Assembly (NCBI GenBank): GCA_050575255.1
Contig: JBNZDD010013472.1
Span: 569,159-633,158, forward strand
DNA length: 64,000 nt
Direction of reading: 5' to 3'
Source of the DNA: Harriotta raleighana
Taxonomy: Eukaryota
In this document: piece after piece, positions 15,560 through 62,459 of the stretch
How positions within the stretch are numbered: position 1 is the first letter of the stretch
Layout: the number at the start of each line of letters is the position of its first letter
Notes under the pieces: generated by a model
The model's database searches: none
Told to the model about the DNA's origin: nothing
Seen by the model: the letters and a program-made list of their open reading frames with translations, nothing else
Position numbers and translations under genes: made by a program

Positions 15560-18174
15560 GAGCAACCCTTTTGTACAACTTTATTATTTTAAGAAAACAA
15601 ACACTTAAAAGGTGATTGCAGAGTTCCTCACTTCCCATTTCACACACCCACGCTTGGGATAAAACCATGAAAGAAACAGTTTATTCAAAGTTTTGTAAAC
15701 AAATCAGAGGAACAGAAACAATGGTAACATGCAGCATCTTCATACAATTCTACAAGACAAGTGTAACATTTCAGAAGCACAAAATCCAATTAGCTCTTTA
15801 ACCTGGAAATGTCCCCCTCCCCAAAAGGCTGTACAAAAATGTCTGAATTACACTAAATTTCAAGTCACTGAAATTTGCCAAGTATTGTATATACAAAGTG
15901 CATATTGAATGATACTTGGAATCAAGTACTAAGTACTCTAGAGCAAAGATGAAATCCTGGGTAACATAACCACTGACCTCTCTTAAATAGTTTTAGAGTG
16001 TTGCGTTCCACAGCAATTACTAAATGGGATCTTGCGGCTTATAGATCCTCTGGGGATGTAATCAATGCAGAAACACATCCTTGTTTGAAAGTAGAAGTGT
16101 AATGAAGTTATCTGCAATGCTTGATCGGGCTATCAACATGTTATTGTATTGTTATTTTCCAGTCATATTTTAGAAGGGAAGAAGCTATTATTTCTCCCCC
16201 AATGTAATAATAATCCTTGCATTTGATATAGCGCTTTTCACGTCTTCTAGGCGTCTCAAAGTGCTTTGCAGAATATACTGTAAAGTGAACTGACTGTATA
16301 TTTGTGGGCGAAACATGGCAGCCAACTGCACGCAGCAGTGTCCCCATAGACAGTCAAGGATTTATTATTGGGTTTTTTTCTTGAGGGATTATTATCAAGC
16401 GTGTGGAGTAAGGAAACTTGCCCAAGGTTTTGCCCTGACTGGAATTGAACCCAGGCCTCTCGCTTGCTAGGCGAGTGCTCTAACCACTGAAGCTACAGGG
16501 CTCCACCATGTAATATCTGTTTTGTCCATAATTAGACATTTTGAAAATAAAAACTTTCCAATCACAATTCATACACCTAATAGTGAACATGTCTAACTCT
16601 AAACAAGATATGGAATTCATGTAAAGAGAATAATAAAATTTCAAGTCTGTCCACATTGTCATGTCCCAGTCCGCAAAGTGTGTATAAGTTTGCCCCACAT
16701 GTAAGTTAAGTAGCCAATTTACTAATAACAATCAAATGCAAGGATTATTAGCAGTAAATCAAAGGGTTATACATTTCCATTGTACATTTTTTTTTTTTTA
16801 AATCTACAACATTCACTTTAAAAAGTATACTTCCTGTCTGCCTGCTGTATAGAGGATATTACAATATCAAAACTTTTGCTATGATTTTATCATGGAAAGT
16901 TTCACAAGAGTAGCTAGCGACTGTATATCTCATGAATGAAAATTGTACCAGAAAGCTTCAACATGTAGCATTTGGCTATATATAATAAGTGCAGTGTTAG
17001 TTGCTATTATTTTGTGTTGTGTACAATGGGAGAGCCAACAATTTTTCTTTTAGAAAAAAATACTTCAGCACGTAATGAGTCTGACCGGAGTATGTCGCTA
17101 CAGTTCAAGTTACACTTTATCCACACTCACTAACGTGGAAGGCCATGCTATGTATGGCACTTTTCCAGTCAATGGATTTCCCTCTATAGCGCACACAGTC
17201 AGGATTGCCGGGGTATTTGCTGCTGGATAAAGACCACGAGATGTCGATCGGTAATTGATACCTAGCCTCTACATACCTAGCCATAGGTAAGCAGATAGCT
17301 ACAGTCTGAGCTCATATGTACAGGATTGGTATATATTAATGTATTCTATACAGGATTATGATAAAGGGGCTATGCAAACTATAATTTACTTCTATTAAAG
17401 ACATTTCAGATGAACTTCATTTACCATACCGGGTTTTGATGCTCAATATATTTTTCTACGGGTTAGACAGTTGGGAGAGCACTCAAGACACAAGAGTAGA
17501 TCAAGGCAATGAACCCACAAAGCACAAAGGATATGTACTATGTTCAGAGAATAACACTGCACTCTTGAGCAAAATGCAATCTTATTGATGAATTATTGTA
17601 TAACTATACAAGGCAAAAAAAAAGTTTCAGCTACAGGATTTAACTGGTCCGATTTGTATACTGTAAATTTAACCACAGCTATTCTCAAATGCCACTTTAA
17701 TTGACCTGAATGTATTACAGATTCCTGCTCATATCTACACAAGTCATTTGGATGATTTTATACTACATTTTTTTTGTGGGTAAAGGGTTAATCAATGAGC
17801 TGGTTAGCAAGCCCCTTTCTCAAAAACAACAGTAACTCAAATTTGGTTCATAAAATCTTAAAAAGTACAAAATATACAAAATAATGTACAGAGGTAAATA
17901 AACTCCCCCCACCCCTTCCCCTTCCCCACCCCCCCACCCCCAAGCATTTGCAATTAAAAATCAAACAGTTACTTATAATCTTTTTGAAACAAATATTAGT
18001 CATACCACCTTCTATTTCACCGGACGCCAACCACTGGAAGTTCTCAAACTGCCTGAGTAATGCACTTGTAAAACGAAAAGGCCATGGCATAGCGTACAAC
18101 GATTGATTCTGTTATTGCCTCAGTCGTTCATAAGATGCCTTCCACAGTCAATAAACCTTTATCTCAATCACCAG
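15560..18174 (-). other. GOLM2: Probable GOLM2 3' UTR with candidate poly(A) signals
   Basis: AT-rich sequence after the stop codon, with minus-strand AATAAA at 15680-15685 and 15580-15585. The true end is not determinable from sequence alone. Confidence 0.5.
16205..16504 (-). mobile_element. Deu-SINE copy inside the probable GOLM2 3' UTR
   Basis: Same head, core and tail. Confidence 0.88.
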
Positions 18175-20770: not shown

Positions 20771-21025
<255 letters not shown>

Positions 21026-22794: not shown

Positions 22795-23137
22795 ATAATA
22801 ACAATAATCCTTGCATTTGATAAAGCTCTTTTCACATCTTATCGACGTCTCAAAGCGCTTCACAGAATATACTGTAGAGTGAATTTACTGAATATTTGTG
22901 GGTGAAATGTGGCAGCCAATGGCGCACAGCAGCGTCCCACACAAACAGTAGTGGATTGAAATGACCAATTTTATTATTGTGGGTTTTTTGGGACAAATTA
23001 TTATTAGGTATATGTGTGTGTGTGTGTGTGTGTGGAGTAAGGAAACTTGCCCAAGGCTTCGCCCTATTCTAACTGGATTTGAAACACAGGTCTCACACTT
23101 GTAAGGCGAGTGCTCTAACCACTGAGCTACAGGAGCT
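22795..23137 (-). mobile_element. Deu-SINE, full length
   Basis: Same consensus, internal (CA)n. Confidence 0.9.
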
Positions 23138-23572: not shown

Positions 23573-23905
23573 AATAATTATAATAATAATAATCCCTGCA
23601 TTAGATATAGCGGCTTTTCATGTCTTCTAGACTGTGTCTCAAAGTGCTTCACAGAATATACTGAAAAGTGATTTGACTGTACATTTGTGAGCGGGTGAAA
23701 CGCGGCAGTCAATTGCGCACAAACATTCAGGGATTGAAATGACCAATTTTATTATCGTGTTTTTTTTGAGGGATTATTAGGCATGTGCGTGTATGTGTGG
23801 AGAAAGGAAACTTGCCCAAGGTTTCTCCCTGAATTGCCTGGATTCGAACCCACAGGTCTCACGCTTGTAAGGCGAGCCCTCTAACCCACTGAGCTACAGG
23901 AGCTC
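23573..23905 (-). mobile_element. Deu-SINE, near full length
   Basis: Same consensus. Confidence 0.88.
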
Positions 23906-24979
23906 CGCAACAACAACAAAATTAAATTGATAGATCGTCTTTTCACGTTTGAGGGGCTGTGGGGAGAGAGCAGGGGGTGGGTGGGGGGGNAACCCACTGA
24001 GCTACAGGAGCTCCGCAACAACAACAAAATTAAATTGATAGATCGTCTTTTCACGTTTGAGGGTCTGTGGGGAGAGAGCAGGGGGTGGGTGGGGGGGGGG
24101 GGGGGAGGGGTAGTGGGATTGTTTTTGGACAGCTCCTTTCAAAAAGCCAGCATGGACACGATGGGCCGAATGGCTTCCTTCTGGGCTATATAGTTGTACG
24201 ATTCTATGCTCAGTACAATGGCCCGAGGTGTTTCTAATTGAAAAGCTGGAACTTAATATTCCGGGCAGGGGTGGGATGGGATTAAACAGTGTGGCAAAAA
24301 CACATGATTGTTGGCACCAGCCACATCGTTTGGTTCTGTGGGCGATGTCTCGTGATGTGGCTGGTTTTTCTACAGTGAGCGATTGTCACCGATTGCTGAG
24401 CTGGTGGATGGGGGTGGGGTAGGTGGTAGGATAGGTCAGTGCAGTGAGTGAGAATCGTTCCATTCTCACGAAGCACGGCTAGGGAGCTCAAGACTGAAGC
24501 TTCACTGAGCACTCTCGTCTCAAATATCAACTGGATTAAAAACTGACCAGCAGAGAGTGAGATCCGCAACTTTAAGTAACAGTCTGCTCGCAAATATCCT
24601 CCCTGTCCGCAGCTGCCAATCACGTGGGTCTCACTCGCTGCACCGCAAGCAGGCAGTCTGCCCTGGGGAGATGACCCTCAGTACAGGAGAATTGGGACCT
24701 TTCAAGCATCCTTCCACACAATACACAGTGAATTCACTTTGCAGTATATCTCCGTGAAGCGCTTTGAGACGTCTCAACGACGCAATAAGGTGCTATATAT
24801 CTCGAACGCAAGGATTATTATTATTATTATTCTCTCTCACACACGGAGCAAACTGCCAGGGGAAGAGAGACGGACAAAGAGGGCGAGAGAGCGCTTTAGG
24901 AAGGCTTGGTCCCCGTACGCACCGGCCTCCACTCTCGCAGCGGATGAAGCTCAGACTGCGTCGGGTATGATTTATTTAC

Positions 24980-31986: not shown

Positions 31987-32041
31987 CTTGTAATCGATGG
32001 ATCAAAGTCTGCTGTTCAGTTATGTTACTTTGATGTTTGGT
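31987..32041 (-). CDS. GOLM2: GOLM2 coding exon 3
   Basis: TKHQSNITEQQTLIHRLQ aligns to recalled mammalian VKLQNNISYQMADIHHLK. 55 nt, acceptor cacaag|, donor G|GTAAGA, phase 0-1. Confidence 0.9.
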
Positions 32042-36809: not shown

Positions 36810-37144
36810 ATAATAATCCTTGCATTTGATATAGCGCTTTTCACATCTTCTAGACGTCTCAAAGCGCTTCACAGAATATACTGTAAAATGAATTGACTGT
36901 CTATTTGTGGGCGAAACACGGCAGCCAATTGTGCAGAGCAGAGTCCCCCACAAACAGTCATGGGTTGAAATGATCAATTTTATTATGATGTTTTTTTCGG
37001 AGGGAATATTATTAGGCGCATGTGTGTGTGTGTGTGTGTGGAGTAAGGAAACTTGCCCAAGGTTTGGCCCTGATCTGCCTGGATTCGAACACAGGTCTTG
37101 CACTTGTAAGCCAAGTGCTCTAACCACTGAGCTACAGAAGCTCC
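36810..37144 (-). mobile_element. Deu-SINE, full length
   Basis: Same consensus. Confidence 0.9.
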
Positions 37145-37979: not shown

Positions 37980-38136
37980 GGAGTGCGCCATCATTTTCAT
38001 GGCAGATATGATCTGTCGCCATGTTCAGTGCCACATCCTCCGTAAAGTGGATGGAGTGAGGAGGCCAGTTGCATCCCCGACAAACTTGTTTCTGCTCCTC
38101 CGCAGTCTCATATCTGATGACAAAAGCAATCTCAAT

Positions 38137-38207
38137 AACGGGGATATGTGGAATCGACTTTCCCACTCTCAGTGACATTGTTTCAATTTCTCATCCCATT
38201 AATTTCC
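38137..38207. repeat. Inverted repeat, left arm (pairs with 39160-39230)
   Basis: aacggggatatgtggaatcgactttcccactctcagtgacattgtttcaatttctcatcccattaatttcc is the reverse complement of 39160-39230 at 67/71 positions. Confidence 0.95.
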
Positions 38208-38931
38208 AAAGAAGAATTTGGTCGCTCAACCCACGACTGTTTGTGGGGATGCTGCTGTGTGCAATTGGCTGCCACGTTTTGCCCACAATCATACAGTCAC
38301 TACACTTTACAGTATAATTGCGTGAAGCACTTTGAAAGGTCTAGAAGAATGCGAAAAGATCTGTATCAAATGCAAGGATTATTATTATGATAACAGGATT
38401 TTGTGGACACCCCTGGATTTGCTAGTCTCTCACTCTGATTCAAAATGCATGTACGTAAAGTTGAGGGCCCTGGATGATCACAGTGTGTTCGCTCTTGTGC
38501 GAGCGGTGGTGTCTGGGGGCGGTGAGAAGGCACCAGCACAGTAAATAAATTTTAAAAAACTGCAGTCATAGGAGGGCGGAGAAGCTAGGAAGTAAATAAC
38601 CACAGCATGTAAAAAAAAAAGTCAGTATTCCTATGAGACTTTTGTTTAGAGAATTAAAAAACCTGAGATAAAAGGAACATTTAGTAATGGGCAAAACAAG
38701 CAGGAATTAATAGACAGTGAAAGCCTGTCCAAGTACCACTTGAGCTTATACACTGTTGGCTCTGTTGATTTGCTGCTTGGTTTGTTTCCATTTATTAACC
38801 ATTGCACGAATATTCCGATCCATTTTACCAGCTAATGAAAGCACTGAGTACATTTTAATCTAGGGTAAGAGACAAAGTGAAACACTCAAACCCCAACCTA
38901 ATTGTTACCTCTCAAACCCACGCCGGCTTAC

Positions 38932-39102
38932 CTTTTCCTCATAGCATTTCTTCACTAAATTGTCTTTCGTTTGCAGCTGGCTGCCCAGAATGTGAAACTC
39001 CTCCTCTTTCTCGTCGATCTGTCTCCTGTGACTGTCCACCTGTCCCATAAGCTCCGAGTTCCTCTTTTCCAGGCGGCTTTTGGCCGTCTCAGTCTTCTTA
39101 AC
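38932..39102 (-). CDS. GOLM2: GOLM2 coding exon 2
   Basis: VKKTETAKSRLEKRNSELMGQVDSHRRQIDEKE...KCYEEK. Acceptor cccgcag|, donor AAG|GTAAGC. 171 nt, phase 0-0. Confidence 0.96.
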
Positions 39103-39159
39103 CTGCGGGAGCAGACAGGCGGACGGGAGTTTACTGCACAATTCGGGAGGATTTTCAAC

Positions 39160-39230
39160 GGAAATTAATGGGATGAGAAATTTAAACAATGTCACTGGGA
39201 GTGGCAAAGTCTATTCCACATATCCCCGTT
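39160..39230. repeat. Inverted repeat, right arm (pairs with 38137-38207)
   Basis: ggaaattaatgggatgagaaatttaaacaatgtcactgggagtggcaaagtctattccacatatccccgtt. Pairing extends imperfectly about 10 nt outward. Confidence 0.95.
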
Positions 39231-42200
39231 TTTGAGTATTCAGCTCATAGAGTTTTTTTTTAGAAATAAGATATTAAAGGAAGTGAATCAATTATGCAAA
39301 AAACTGTAGCCTGTCCACATTAACACACATTATAATCTTTCTTTTCAGGCCCTTCCGATTGATGCCTATATCAAATGCAAGGATTATTTATAACTATTAT
39401 TATAATGCCAGAAAACAATCATGGCACAGTGTATGTAAAAGTTCATAATACATATTTCATAATTGGCCCAATTACTAGCTCATACTGCGTGCCTGCATGA
39501 ATGCGTGCGTGAGAGAGAGAAAGAAAGATGGGGTGGGGTACATGTTGAAAATAAAACCGGAGTGAAGATGTATTTACAGCAATGTGCCCATTGATATATC
39601 CAGACATCACTTATTCAGCCTGTCCAGGGAGACAATCTCAAGCTATAAATGTGTCTGATTCCTTGCAGCACTCAAGCTGGTACAACCTTTATCTACCTTT
39701 AGTGATACATAGCAAAGGTGCCCCAAAGCTGTCCAAGCACACGGAAAATATTATCTGTAAATTTCGGGTAAACATTACCAAAAGCAAAAGCTCCCAAGTC
39801 ATTAATGAAAGCCATTGAAGGAAGTGATCCCAATAGGTTCAATGGACAGAGGCGATGGTGAAGAACCACTCCACCAAGGCTCAGATGTTGCTGAGAGGAT
39901 ATCGGAGACAAATAACATTCCCTGTTCCATGCAACAACGAAGTGATAACAAAAACAAATGCATTCACACTGACGATTCCGACATAATGAGTGAGGGAATG
40001 TGTGCTAAATCATCTTGAGCTGCAGAGGATTATAAGATTTGAGGAGGGCACAGAAAGGAGAAACCTTCACTGCTTGTGAGCCAAGATTAATTGGGTCTCT
40101 CAGATCTTCTGGATATTCCACATTTCACGTGGAATACTGTAGCTTAGTGGTTAGAGCACTCACTTTGCAGAAGACGTGAAATGCGCTACATCAAATACAA
40201 CGATTATTATTAGATTATTTTGAATCAGTAAACATTAAAACTAGCAGAAGCAGCCTTTTTGTAAAAAAAAATCCATACTCCATAATTCAAGAGATTACAA
40301 AATATTCCCAACTGTTGACTACATTGAGGGACTTCAGAAACAGGTCGATGTTTTTAATATCCCACAAGCGTGCTGCCTTTCTATTTTAGGACAGCAACAA
40401 CAAAATTACATTTACAGAGAGCGCCTTTCACATCAGGAGGATGTACCAAGGTGGTGGATGGCCTCAATGTGGAACTCGCTGCTGGAAGCTGTAGCTTTCG
40501 AAGCAAAAAGGATCAATGGATTTAAGAGGAAACTTCATGCGTGCACAAGGAGAAAGCAATAGGATGGATGGGATTTGTGTGAAGTATAAACGTTGGCACA
40601 GACCCACCAGTATGGCTGAATGACCCAAATCATTTTACGCAAATCTATGTAATACCCGCAGATCAGAAGCAAAACCAAATTGGTTTATGAAATCTAAAAA
40701 AAAACAATGTGTTATTCGCTCTTGTATGTCCATTAGTGTGGAACAGCTCATTACACCCCAAAAATTAGTGCAATTTTAATTTAAATTATATGGATTGGTA
40801 GGGTGCATAGAATATAAAACCCAGCAGAGAGCCTGGAGAAATTTTACAGCAGCTACAACAGCGCTGAACCACTCAAGTAAATACAGTACATCTAAAACCT
40901 CTTAATTACAACAGTCTTGTGTCCTGTATTCTACAGGCAGAGACTGAAAATAAAATGAATGATCTTTAGCCGGCATGTGAGAATTAATATTTATTGTATC
41001 ACGAGTACAGTTATTCCCACATGCAGTTAACAGACTCGTGCTTTCAGTCATTCGGCACATCATTCAGTGAAAATGATCACATTGATGCAGCTAGCAAGGT
41101 CAGGACATTGTTTTAGCGCACTTTTTTTGGCTTTGAACCAGAAAGTGTGCTGAGTAGAGGGCTAGCTTCTGTTGTCTACCGTGCTAATGCAATATTCTCC
41201 TGATATGATCAGGACTGCACCTTTTACGGAGCTCGGGCATGACTGATATCTATTAACTCCGCTCAACAAATCCATCAGAGTTTACACCGAGAAAGGAAAG
41301 TTATTAAAATGGTGAGGTAGCATGGCTATGTTCAATCAGTGTTTTCTGAATTCTTAGCACTCACGGTCAAGGTAAGATCACTAGACTAAACATCAAAGAC
41401 CAGACCATGACAGCTGGGCTACGCTACTCGTATTCATTGCACTGCACTCAAACCATAAATCGCTCAGGCTTTTAATTTTGCCCCCATTTCCTTACTGTGC
41501 ATTTCGACACAAAAAAAACCTCCCCCCCCCAGCAAACAGAAATTCACCCTTTGATATTGCTGAGCTTTCTCTCGCACCAATTCCTTCCGACATCTCTTCA
41601 TATTACACCAGAGATGCAGTGGTGAAATGTGGCTATAAACCGATCAGGGAAGAATAATACACTGTGTCATCTCAGCACCTGTGCTGACAAACGAACTCCT
41701 CACTGAAAATTCCTACATTAATAAGATTATGTTGTTGGGTTGAAACTACAGAGCAGCGGTTTGTATTATGTCAAGATCCTAAATCTGCTCAGCAACTAAC
41801 CAACTGACAGCTGTGGTCCAACAACCACCTGCTCTTATACAGCGCCTTTCACGTTGGATAAAGCTTCAATGTGCTTTACAGGAATGCTGTGAATCACGGA
41901 GGTGTGAAGAGGAGGGAGCGAAAGTAGGCAGGTGATTGGAAACTCACTCAAAACGTCTAGGTATTTGGAGCATTTGCAAATCAGGGAGAGAGTGAAAGGG
42001 ATTTGGGGGAGGGAGGGAGATCTGAAAATGTGGTTACTGAGCTGAAAATTGAGCATAATAATAATATTATGAATGATAATTAATTAATAATATTAATCAT
42101 TGTATTTGATTTAGCACATTATGATGTCACTGAGACGCTTCAAAGCACTTCACAGGATATATTATATAGAAAATTGCCTGTGTATTTTGGGAGGAAAAAC

Positions 42201-44544: not shown

Positions 44545-46232
44545 ACCATCCCAGTGACAGTATACCCTCCCCCTTCCTGCTGTACAGTAATACTCTTCCC
44601 CTTGGTGTTTACAGTTATACCCTCTCCCCCTCCCCCCATCAGTATACATTGATACCCCCCCTCTCCCCACCGCCAGTTTAGTGACCCCTCTCTCTCCCCC
44701 TCACCCAGGTATACAGTGACACCCTCTCCCCCTCAGTATACAGTAGCACACCCTCTCCTCCCCCACCCCATAGAATACAGTGACACCCTCTCCCCCTCAG
44801 TATACAGTAACACACCCTCTCCTCCCCCCCCCCATAGAATACAGTGACACCCTCCCCCCCCCCGTATACAGTGACCCCCTCTCCCCCCCAGTATAGTGGC
44901 ACACCCTCTCTCCCCCCCAGTATACAGTGACACACCCTCCCCCCAATATACAGTGAGACCCCTTCCCCACCAGTATAGTGACAGCCCCCCCTTCCCCCAG
45001 TATACAGTAACACCCCCTCCCCCCAATATAGTGACACACCCTCTCTCCCCCCAGTATAAAGTGACACCCCCTCCCCCCCAATATGCAGTGACACCCCCTC
45101 CCCCCAGTATACAGTGAGCCCCCCTCCCCCCAGAATACAGTGAGACCCCCTTCCCCCAGTATACAGTGACACCCCCTTCCCCCAGTATACCGTGACACCC
45201 CNNNNNNNNNNNNNNNNNNNNNNNNNNNNNNNNNNNNCCCCAGTATACAGTGACACCCTCCCCTTCCTCCCCCTCCCCCCAGTATACAGTGACACCCTCC
45301 CCTTCCTCCCCCTCCCCCCAGTATACAGTGACACCCTCCCCTTCCTCCCCCTCCCCCCAGTATACAGTGACACCCTCCCCTTCCTCCCCCTCCCCCCAGT
45401 ATACAGTGACACCCTCCCCTTCCTCCCCCTCCCCCCAGTATACAGTGACACCCTCCCCTTCCTCCCCCTCCCCCCAGTATACAGTGACACCCTCCCCTTC
45501 CTCCCCCTCCCCCCAGTATACAGTGACACCCTCCCCTTCCTCCCCCTCCCCCCAGTATACAGTGACACCCTCCCCTTCCTCCCCCTCCCCCCAGTATACA
45601 GTGACACCCTCCCCTTCCTCCCCCTCCCCCCAGTATACAGTGACACCCTCCCCTTCCTCCCCCTCCCCCCAGTATACAGTGACACCCTCCCCTTCCTCCC
45701 CCTCCCCCCAGTATACAGTGACACCCTCCCCTTCCTCCCCCTCCCCCCAGTATACAGTGACACCCTCCCCTTCCTCCCCCTCCCCCCAGTATACAGTGAC
45801 ACCCTCCCCTTCCTCCCCCTCCCCCCAGTATACAGTGACACCCTCCCCTTCCTCCCCCTCCCCCCAGTATACAGTGACACCCTCCCCTTCCTCCCCCTCC
45901 CCCCAGTATACAGTGACACCCTCCCCTTCCTCCCCCTCCCCCCAGTATACAGTGACACCCTCCCCTTCCTCCCCCTCCCCCCAGTATACAGTGACACCCT
46001 CCCCTTCCTCCCCCTCCCCCCAGTATACAGTGACACCCTCCCCTTCCTCCCCCTCCCCCCAGTATACAGTGACACCCTCCCCTTCCTCCCCCTCCCCCCA
46101 GTATACAGTGACACCCTCCCCTTCCTCCCCCTCCCCCCAGTATACAGTGACACCCTCCCCTTCCTCCCCCTCCCCCCAGTATACAGTGACACCCTTCCCC
46201 CCCCCCCACCCACAGAGTATACAGTGACCCCC
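44545..46232. repeat. 39-bp C-rich minisatellite in GOLM2 intron 1
   Basis: Unit cagtatacagtgacaccctccccttcctccccctccccc, about 24-25 perfect copies from 45238, with variable-length degenerate copies at 44545-45201. Confidence 0.97.
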
Positions 46233-46258: not shown

Positions 46259-46411
46259 CTGGATGTGCAGCTCGGCCAGCTCCCGCTGCAGGCCGCCGTG
46301 TTTGCCTGACATGACCCAGTAGTTGAAGCCCAGGATGCCGATCAGCAGCAGGAGGCCGATCAGCAGGAGCGAGGGCACGCGGCCTCCGCGCCGGCTGTTC
46401 CCGAACATCAT
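46259..46411 (-). CDS. GOLM2: GOLM2/CASC4 coding exon 1 (cytoplasmic tail, type II signal-anchor, start of coiled coil)
   Basis: Encodes MMFGNSRRGGRVPSLLLIGLLLLIGILGFNYWVMSGKHGGLQRELAELHIQ, recognisably the CASC4 N-terminus (R.PSL...FNYW...H..LQ.E.AEL). 153 nt, donor CAG|GTCAGA, phase 0. Confidence 0.95.
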
Positions 46412-46572: not shown

Positions 46573-47400
46573 CTTCGAGCCTGTCAGGTGTCGCGGTGAG
46601 GAGTGAGAGGACAGTCAGTCGGTCGGTCGGTCGGTCGGTCGGTCGGGACAGGCCCGAGGCCGGCCACCCCCCCTCCCCTCCCTNGTCAGGTGTCGCGGTG
46701 AGGAGTGAGAGGACAGTCAGTCAGTCGGTCGGGACAGGCCCGAGGCCGGCCACCCCCCCTCCCCTCCCTCGCTCCCTCCCTCCCTCCCGGGGTCTCTTCA
46801 CGGGAGTCTTGCCACCAAAACGGAGGATAGAGGGAAGAGGGGAAAGGAGGAGAAAAAGAGAGGGCCCTCCCGCCCTCACTCCTTCCTTCCTCGCGCGCCC
46901 TCACCAACCGCCGCCCCCCGACCGTTAAATAAGATTGACCGACCGCGCTGTTTTTTTTCGCTGGTCCCGAACCCGCGACCGCCTGATTTAACGACGCCGC
47001 GCACGCGCAGATGAGATGAGGGAAGGCGGTAGGGAGAGAGCTTTATTTTTTCCTTCTCGTCGCCGGCCGACCGACCCGGACCCCCGACCCTGACCCGCGT
47101 TGAGTGACTTGACTCTCTCTGACTGACTGCACTGAGTGTGAAAGGGTGAATGGGACCCCGCTTACGAGTGAGGGTTTGGGTGATGAGCGCGCACTAACCT
47201 GCTACCACTAGGGAAGGGTGGGGGGGGGGGCGGGGCGCGCCATTGTGACATCACGAGGATCAACCAATCACGCCGCGGTCCCCCCAATCCAGTCGACTCC
47301 CTATTGGTCCATCCCTCCTCCCCGGCCACGGATCGGATCGGACCCGCCCACTGTCAGGTTCGGGTGAGAGCGCGCACTACTACTGTACTTCCGCACTCGT
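46412..47400 (-). promoter_or_regulatory. GOLM2 CpG-island promoter and 5' UTR
   Basis: CpG-rich. GC box near 47227-47236, CRE-like GTGACATCAC 47245-47254, CCAAT at 47264 and 47284, ATTGG at 47303, NRF1-like GCGCACGCGC near 47000. Confidence 0.75.
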
Positions 47401-50026: not shown

Positions 50027-51020
50027 AAATAATAATCCTTGCGTTTGATATAGCGCTTTTTTTGTCTTCTAGATGTCCCAAAGCACTTCACGGAATATAC
50101 TGTAAAGTTAATTGACTGTATATATTTATGGGCGAAACGCAGCAGCCAATTGCGCACAGCAGCGTCCCCCCCACAAACAGTCGGTGGATTGAAAATGAAC
50201 AATTTAATTATTATGTTTTTTTTTAGGGATTATTATTATTACTCATGTGGAGTAATGAAACTTGCCCAAGGTTTCTCCCTGACCTGCCTGGATTCAAATG
50301 CACGCTTTTAAGGCGAGTGCTCTAACCATTCAATCCACGAGCGTTTGTGGGGCATTGCTGTGTGCGATAATTGGCCACTGCGTTTCACCCACAAAATACA
50401 CAGCCAAACCACTTTACAGGGTACTTTGGGGAAGTGCTTTGAGATGGTTCGACAATGTGATAGATAAGGTGTTATCTGAAATGCAAGGGTCAATATAGTG
50501 CTGTTATATTATTATAATGCCTGTGTACCTTTGTGCGTCTATCACTGCTTGCCATATGTTTGTGTGCATGGATCTTACCTGGGCTCGTTCTGGGCTCGTC
50601 AGCAATTATAAGGTGGCTGCATCACCGAGAGAGCAAGCCTTGAAATTCCTCCTAGTCTCAGCTCCTTGAGGCCATATCATCTTAACAACAACATCAACAA
50701 CAAAATAACAATAATAAACCTTGCATTTGATATGGCGCTTTTCAATCTTATCGACATCTCAAAGTCCTTCACAGAATATACTGTAAAGTGAATTGACTAT
50801 TTTTGTTGGCGAAATTCGGCAGCCAATTATGCACAGCAGCGTCCCCACGAACAGATGTGGATTGAAATGATTTTTTTTGTTGAGGGGGGGGAAGGGATTA
50901 TTATTAGGGGTGCGTGTGAAGTAAGGAAACTTGCCCAAGGTTTCGCCCTGACCTGGCTGCATTTGAACACAGATCGCACGCTTGTAAGGCGAATGCTCTA
51001 ACCACTGAGCTACAGGAGAC
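50027..51020. mobile_element. SINE cluster: minus 50027-50328, plus fragment about 50328-50490, minus 50709-51020
   Basis: Matches to the in-window consensus. Confidence 0.85.
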
Positions 51021-61544: not shown

Positions 61545-61862
61545 ACATCTCCAACCTCCCCTCCTCACATCAGTACTCACTGCCTCCGCTCTACTGGGTC
61601 TGCCTGGCCTCCTTTCTTGTGTCCCCCGCCCGATCCTCCGCTCCACCATATGGCGGCCATGCTTTCAGCCCCAAAACTTTGGAGCTCCCTCCCTCAATCC
61701 CTATCACCTCTCTCTCTCCTCCTTTCCCATCTTCAGTTCACGCCTGAAGACCTCTCTCTTCGAATGACAATGCGTTTACATTCACCGCCTACCCCCCTCC
61801 CCCTCACCCCACCGGCTCGTCCCCCGCGTGGAGGGCGCTGTATAAATACAAGTTGTTGTTGA
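61545..61862 (+). mobile_element. L2 LINE 3' fragment
   Basis: PKLWSSLP and FSSRLKTSLF remnants, followed by the tail gtggagggcgctgtataaatacaagttgttgtt. Confidence 0.8.
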
Positions 61863-62459
61863 TGGTGATGTCTTGTCTATCGGTGGAATATCCATCCGTG
61901 TGTAGATGGGATGCTTTGAACTCACAGTAGGAATGAAAACGCTTGTCAAATGTTGGGAGAGTTGGCAGGTGCGACTGAGGCAGTATTCATTCCAACCTGA
62001 GCTCAACAGAAATGGATGGANCCCGCGTGGAGGGCGCTGTATAAATACAAGTTGTTGTTGATGGTGATGTCTTGTCTATCGGTGGAATATCCATCCGTGT
62101 GTAGATGGGATGCTTTGAACTCACAGTAGGAATAAAAACGCTTGTCAAATGTTGGGAGAGTTGGCAGGTGCGACTGAGGCAGTATTCATTCCAACCTGAG
62201 CTCAACAGAAATGGATGGGTAGCTCGGCTTTGAATAACAAATCCGGGGTAATACAAACAAGCGTTTCCAATCCGGTTAAGTGTGTATGGGTGGGTGGTGG
62301 TGGGGGGGGGGGGGGGGAGGGGAGGAGAAAAGGGAGAATTTCTGAATGAGTGTTAGCTTTGTGTAACATATTAATTCCGTGAGCAGACACCCAACCCTCT
62401 GAGAACCAATTGTTTTAATGTAGGAAAAAGCGAAATTACATTGGTAGGACAAAAAAATG

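Follow-up and report, generated by a model that had tools for sequence, protein, structure and literature searches.

GOLM2 (CASC4) lies on the reverse strand of the window, by which we mean the whole 64,000-nt stretch of DNA that was analysed, and its exon 2 is flanked by two arms of an inverted repeat, arm B in intron 1 and arm A in intron 2 (Table 1). The first-pass annotation, which was made from the sequence alone, described exon 2 as 171 nt long and in phase 0-0; this is correct, and skipping of the exon therefore keeps the reading frame. Both splice sites of exon 2 are strong and close to consensus (...CCCGCAG/GTT and AAG/GTAAGC, with slashes at the exon boundaries). The encoded 57-residue peptide shares 93% identity with the GOLM2 of Callorhinchus milii, besides which the protein searches returned no chimaera GOLM2, and 75–81% identity with those of sharks and rays, which makes a chimaera the likely source of the window.

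Table 1. Features of the GOLM2 exon 2 region, with positions counted from the first base of the window.
Feature	Position	Strand	Description
GOLM2 exon 3	31987..32041	-	55 nt; starts in phase 0
Arm A, intron 2 (downstream arm of the transcript)	38131..38207	-	72/77 identity to arm B
Support for arm A	38131..38207	-	Contig of run X1 (38067-38244) includes both junctions with 0 differences; raw-read depth 2.3 in run X11
5'-truncated tRNA-derived SINE (3' half)	~38208..38392	+	TAT-repeat tail; the cut 5' end touches arm A
GOLM2 (CASC4) exon 2	38932..39102	-	171 nt, phase 0-0; 57 aa of the luminal stem with the KRNS motif
57-nt spacer, outside the duplex	39103..39159	-	Likely branch point (motif-inferred), pyrimidine tract and 3' splice site
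Arm B, intron 1 (upstream arm of the transcript)	39160..39236	-	Spanned together with its flanks in two relatives
GOLM2 coding exon 1	46259..46411	-	Encodes the cytosolic tail and the transmembrane segment; end phase 0

The arms were initially described as reverse complements with 67 matching positions in 71 (38137–38207 and 39160–39230), and the same identity was obtained here; the chance expectation for an inverted match of this quality in 64 kb is approximately 1e-23. In a BLAST self-comparison, the pair lengthens to 77 bp with 72 identical positions. The imperfect extension to about 82 bp that had been proposed thus stands up to 77 bp, and past 38131 the matches are merely scattered. As reported earlier, the window holds no third copy of the arm (the next local-alignment score is 24, versus 130 for the partner arm). 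The spacing is also borne out: 57 nt separate arm B from the acceptor and 724 nt separate the exon 2 donor from arm A (about 57 and about 725 nt in the annotation), and the loop between the arms is 952 nt (about 950 nt in the annotation) with exactly one exon inside. In the transcript, the four mismatches of the 71-bp core are A.G, G.G, C.A and A.G, among which is the A:C pair noted before, and the fifth mismatch, in the 77-bp extension, is A.A. All five break pairing, and none is a G-U pair.

Self-matches cover at least 24% of the 64 kb. Eight pairs in the window have two copies only, and the exon 2 pair is the sole inverted one among them with more than 90% identity; three of the eight are duplications around the single scaffold Ns at 23990, 46684 and 62021.

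Copy number of the arms and the adjoining SINE

Read depth was surveyed over the region 37990–39489 at 80% likeness in 4 sequencing runs (X11, X1, X5 and X9) of the 13 listed, among which no RNA run appeared. For X11, which consists of raw DNA reads (about 2% of the run) and whose species identity with the window is unproven, the depth is 2.3 in the arm A bin, 1.3 and 1.0 in the arm B bins and 1.0–1.5 in the exon 2 bins. In contrast, the bins of the adjoining SINE reach a depth of approximately 70,000–87,000. Because the depth on the arms is exon-like, the arm is single-copy or very low-copy at a likeness of at least 80%, which upholds the earlier statement that it matches none of the SINE or LINE families in the window. 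Read depth was used here instead of a genome BLAST, and by this measure, to which copies less than 80% alike are invisible, the arm is not high-copy. A search of Rfam at gathering thresholds gave three tRNA-like matches elsewhere in the window and none in the arm and exon region.

These data bear on two explanations of the pair. The arms may stem from a rare dispersed repeat that inserted twice independently, or they may have served as the terminal inverted repeats of a DNA transposon that has since decayed; repeats are indeed common in the window, as the self-matches indicate, and diverged copies would escape the depth survey. Against both forms of this origin stand the single-copy depth in raw reads, the lack of a third copy in 64 kb, the position of arm B inside an unbroken orthologous intron, the interior of the pair, which is a conserved host exon and not a mobile sequence, and the outer ends of the arms, where no duplication is present. 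A metagenome scan with a 21-mer from the arm gave four matches, none longer than 32 nt, which were rejected as chance. We consider a mobile origin of the arms very unlikely. That arm A is an artefact of the assembly, for which the scaffold-join duplications around the three Ns would be a precedent, is improbable in the extreme: arm A departs from arm B at 5 of 77 positions, raw reads of X11 cover arm A, and the X1 contig crosses arm A and both of its junctions without a difference, which argues that the arm is real, with the caveat that X1 may share the sample of the assembly.

The loop also contains a truncated SINE that the first-pass annotation overlooked, and arm A, ending at 38207, adjoins it with zero gap. 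The SINE family is abundant in the window. Compared with the majority sequence of 22 other copies, the loop SINE has 21 differences in 158 positions, or 12 in 138 when CpG sites are left out. At the junction, arm A may overlap the C-then-A run of the SINE by 2–3 nt, as putative microhomology. Inspection by eye gives a candidate target-site duplication, which is weak: TGATGACA at 38115–38122 and TGATAACA at 38388–38395 agree at 7 of 8 positions and would enclose arm A together with the SINE.

Age of arm A and probable direction of copying

Runs X5 and X9, which come from two further organisms, were compared with the window through Logan contigs, in which a hole proves nothing. Their sequences differ from the window by 6–16% over five pieces that are mostly intronic and by 3% over an exon piece. 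In each relative, arm B and both of its flanks are found in one contig (piece 39014–39477 in X5 and piece 39115–39483 in X9), which indicates that arm B is ordinary ancestral intron sequence. The arm A bin (38140–38189) has a depth of 0 in both relatives, which, as a contig hole, is weak evidence. It is the sole empty bin of 30 in X9; in X5, 4 of the 30 bins are empty, and the missing sequence includes 38840–38989, which takes in part of exon 2. A contig of X5 matches 38010–38130 and departs at the first base of arm A with unaligned letters remaining. The depth of X5 on arm B is exactly 27.2, with no additional contig there. The corresponding depths of X9 are 31.6 and 41.4, versus 12.6 for the listed contig, an excess that could hide an arm-A-like contig. 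The first-pass annotation had named absence from relatives as an observation that would speak against its proposal of an RNA switch, and arm A is provisionally absent from X5 and X9, subject to the holes in their contigs.

The arms differ from each other at 5 of 77 positions, approximately 6% (95% CI 2–15%), a divergence that resembles the 6–16% of the mostly intronic pieces in the relatives and fits neutral decay from about the time of the split with them or later. From these sequence comparisons, we infer that arm A is the derived copy and is younger than the split from X5 and X9. The 3' end of the SINE is common to both relatives (the contig pieces start at 38351 and 38356), which indicates that the SINE predates that split.

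The order of these events is relevant to a second possible source of arm A, namely a long templated patch of "5' extra" nucleotides that was made when the SINE inserted and is therefore of the same age as the SINE. Such a patch would explain why arm A meets the truncated 5' end without a gap and would agree with the weak target-site duplication. It also has a counterpart in a fish genome, since many of the extra nucleotides at the truncated 5' ends of zebrafish ZfL2 LINE inserts, which are non-LTR elements, come from flanking DNA (Yamaguchi et al. 2014, PMC4245944). However, the divergence of the SINE (12/138) predicts about 16% between arms of its own age, under which the observed 5/77 has P = 0.009; the same P is 0.09–0.23 if the source of the SINE was only 6.25–5% away, i.e. 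closer than the majority sequence. Both relatives share the 3' end of the SINE, seemingly without arm A, which thus appears younger than the SINE, and the study of the zebrafish inserts reports "several" extra nucleotides and not 77. An origin of arm A during insertion of the SINE is unlikely on this evidence.

Predicted RNA structure and skipping of exon 2

The long duplex between the arms that had been anticipated is predicted by folding, with an energy of −116.6 kcal/mol and 93% of the 5' arm paired. The predicted unpaired probability of arm B is 0.07 with arm A and 0.35 without it. With versus without arm A, the mean unpaired probability is 0.33 versus 0.34 at the branch point and 3' splice site, and the values are 0.48 versus 0.47 in exon 2 and 0.21 versus 0.24 at the 5' splice site. 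Arm A is predicted to leave the accessibility of the splice sites, the branch point and the exon unaltered. Competing SINE-SINE pairing inside intron 2, with a predicted energy of approximately −216 kcal/mol, crosses the arm pair and would form later in transcription.

When such a pair was placed at random in the introns of GOLM2, a whole exon was enclosed in 6346 of 23023 placements (28%; exon limits were taken from tblastn, and some are a few bases off). Inverted pairs of at least 50 nt bracket 4 of the 9 exons examined; most of these pairs are SINEs, with 70–81% identity, and among them the exon 2 pair has the shortest spacing and the highest identity. The presence of zero pairing-preserving changes among the 4–5 differences between the arms is unremarkable under neutrality (P 0.19–0.26), so that the lack of G-U pairs, being ordinary for neutral sequence, is no proof of neutrality.

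Skipping of exon 2 was followed in the GOLM2 records of other fishes. These counts refer to isoforms as annotated in database gene models. Proteins of ≤400 aa or ≤370 aa and a weak match (P0086) were left out, the large clusters contributed 15 of 28 and 15 of 38 members, and the clusters were first found by the sequence of exon 2, which biases them against skip forms. Among the 74 cartilaginous-fish records listed, exon 2 is complete in 68, whereas 2 begin within it, 1 is without the N-terminus and 3 skip it exactly. The exact-skip records belong to a sawshark and two skates (Pristiophorus japonicus X3, Rhinoraja longicauda X3 and Leucoraja erinacea X7), whereas none of the 64 bony-fish records listed skips the exon exactly. 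All three of the full-length GOLM2 records of Callorhinchus retain exon 2. Because the skippers are elasmobranchs and arm A is seemingly younger than the split from the chimaera relatives, the skip isoform appears independent of the repeat.

The KRNS motif, which is encoded on exon 2, is present in 68 of the 74 cartilaginous-fish records and in all 64 bony-fish records listed. In human CASC4, KR66/NS (the slash marks the cleaved bond) is described as the PC7/furin shedding site, cleavage of which releases the luminal domain (PMC7441151). Since exon 2 holds this convertase site, GOLM2 without exon 2 would likely resist shedding. Two of the three skip forms keep a further dibasic site, RR-NS, downstream. 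A literature search, which most subscription journals lie outside, found no paper on the skipping of GOLM2 exon 2 by sharks, on the pair at the GOLM2 locus, or on lineage-specific inverted duplications linked to exon skipping.

In human data, exons looped out by stable pairs of complementary regions show lower average inclusion, such pairs are over-represented around circular RNAs and contain more editing sites, and intronic structures without conservation outnumber the conserved ones almost 20-fold (PMC8052449, PMC10691357). Both the pairs of conserved complementary regions (PCCRs; Kalmykova et al. 2021, PMC8052449) and the non-conserved structures (PMC10691357) can, like the exon 2 pair, have arms in adjacent introns that enclose one exon. 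PCCRs are expected to be accompanied by lower inclusion, circular RNA and editing, and the exon 2 pair would be loop-out-like at most by prediction. PCCRs are, moreover, defined by conservation, whereas arm A is provisionally unseen in X5 and X9, given the contig holes there, and no compensatory change is found between the arms.

The first-pass annotation inferred an RNA-structure switch on GOLM2 isoforms, and an evolved switch is unsupported: arm A is provisionally unseen in the relatives, no compensatory or G-U change is seen between the arms, bracketing of an exon arises in 28% of random placements, and the predicted accessibility is unchanged. A related proposal is that the pair is nonetheless under selection today as a switch that yields either an in-frame GOLM2 without the KR/NS site or circular exon 2 RNA. 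The stable predicted duplex with a single in-frame exon in its loop, the exact skips in three cartilaginous-fish species, the near-constant KRNS motif with its human counterpart and the reduced inclusion of looped-out human exons would all suit it. On the other side, the arm seems absent from two relatives and shows no change that preserves pairing, the annotated skipping in the sawshark and the two skates does not need the chimaera copy, provided that this copy is young, every Callorhinchus record keeps exon 2, and the splice sites are strong with no predicted change in accessibility. Selection on the pair as a switch is doubtful and, in our estimate, quite unlikely. A modest side effect of the duplex on skipping, back-splicing or editing is plausible in view of the human data and of the exact-skip records.

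Origin of the pair and its meaning

The reading that we favour, with some confidence, is that the pair is a local inverted templated insertion, i.e. a scar of repair or replication, which is likely drifting without selection. A DNA end would have broken or stalled in or beside the older SINE in intron 2 and would then have primed, by a local template switch, on arm B in intron 1, about 950 bases away. Arm A would result if 77 nt were copied from the opposite strand before the end was rejoined at the cut end of the SINE, whose 5' half may have been lost either in the same event or at its own insertion. Once arm A is transcribed, about 720 nt past the exon 2 donor, the arms are predicted to pair in the pre-mRNA. 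The likely outcome is at most a modest gain in skipping of the exon, in back-splicing or in A-to-I editing of the introns, which would arise as an unregulated side effect.

Inverted templated insertions occur as human germline variants, at about 100 per person in a search within 100 bp (PMC8421209). Like the exon 2 pair, microhomology-mediated templated insertions (MMB-TI; Osia et al. 2021, PMC8421209) consist of a short inverted copy of a nearby template, which is fixed or segregates in the germline and involves no gross rearrangement. The template of arm A is 952 nt off and thus past the 100-bp limit, which is a setting of that search, and, as a further difference, the copy has already drifted by about 6%. 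Class 2 templated sequence insertion polymorphisms (TSIPs; Onozawa and Aplan 2016, PMC5110952) are comparable in that the patches have a similar size (73–414 bp experimentally) and no poly(A) tail. Their templates are distant, whereas that of arm A is local (952 nt) and inverted.

A literature search found no paper that ties inverted short paired duplications to double-strand breaks, most subscription journals being outside its range. The "doublets" of Thomas et al. 2004 are said to be two-copy duplications of less than 100 bp within a few kb, ascribed to break repair, and are reportedly mostly direct and near-identical. The exon 2 pair is likewise two-copy, shorter than 100 bp and within a few kb, as in these doublets, but is inverted. 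It is probably another case of the local inverted templated insertions that are already known.

As a repair scar, the pair would be a minor and ordinary example, with a use as a lineage marker. It is also conceivable, although we hold it to be rather improbable, that the duplex, built by one repair accident around an exon that is already skipped now and then in cartilaginous fishes, is a newborn switch that raises skipping in the chimaera lineage and thereby produces an unshed, membrane-bound GOLM2. If this were true, a single datable mutation would have given rise to long-range RNA pairing whose consequence for the protein is defined, the loss of the convertase shedding site, for which the near relatives without arm A would serve as natural controls. 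Separately, an exon in cartilaginous fishes that carries the shedding site and can be skipped on its own is of interest regardless of the role of the repeat.

Repeats and sequence joins in the window

Arm A (intron 2) and arm B (intron 1), the inverted repeat that brackets GOLM2 exon 2, have further repeats as neighbors. An inverted pair of SINEs (161 nt at 83%, 1258 nt apart) is located within intron 2, and its predicted pairing would cross the arm A-arm B duplex and therefore compete with it. Immediately left of arm A is a low-copy repeat at which the depth of aligned DNA reads is ~37–68, compared with 1–2 in unique DNA; no clear second copy was found within the 64-kb window. A G-rich tandem repeat (units of ~40 nt) is located at the start of intron 1, directly past the exon 1 donor. 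The three Rfam tRNA matches overlie SINE heads, from which we infer that they are not true tRNA genes. The three near-identical tandem duplications are scaffold-join artefacts.

Coordinates of features in the window
Feature	Positions	Strand	Detail
GOLM2 exon 2	38932-39102	-	
Alternative GOLM2 exon	20843-21010	-	168 nt, in frame; protein match to Callorhinchus
Inverted SINE pair	36810-36968, 38226-38385		
Low-copy repeat	37990-38090		read depth
G-rich tandem repeat	46021-46230		
Rfam tRNA matches	16430-16502, 23065-23136, 50956-51013		32-41 bits
Tandem duplications	23883-24097, 46583-46769, 61823-62218		single N at center of each

Alternative exon and starts of GOLM2

The main alternative exon of GOLM2 is the 168-nt exon, because many shark and ray isoforms in the database comparison lack it; its protein is identical to Callorhinchus residues 438–493 (56/56). 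Two elasmobranch isoforms (P0023 and P0030) start at a methionine within exon 2, directly after the KRNS motif, and the transmembrane segment is therefore absent from both.

Exon 2 skipping and the shedding motif

Exon 2, which encodes the KRNS motif, is precisely absent from three database isoforms, P0035, P0062 and P0097 (one sawshark and two skates), and the exact skip occurs in none of 64 bony-fish GOLM2 database records. PMC7441151 describes PC7/furin shedding of human CASC4 at the KRNS motif. The skip isoforms suggest a putative cartilaginous-fish route to shed-resistant GOLM2, with no need for the arm A-arm B repeat.
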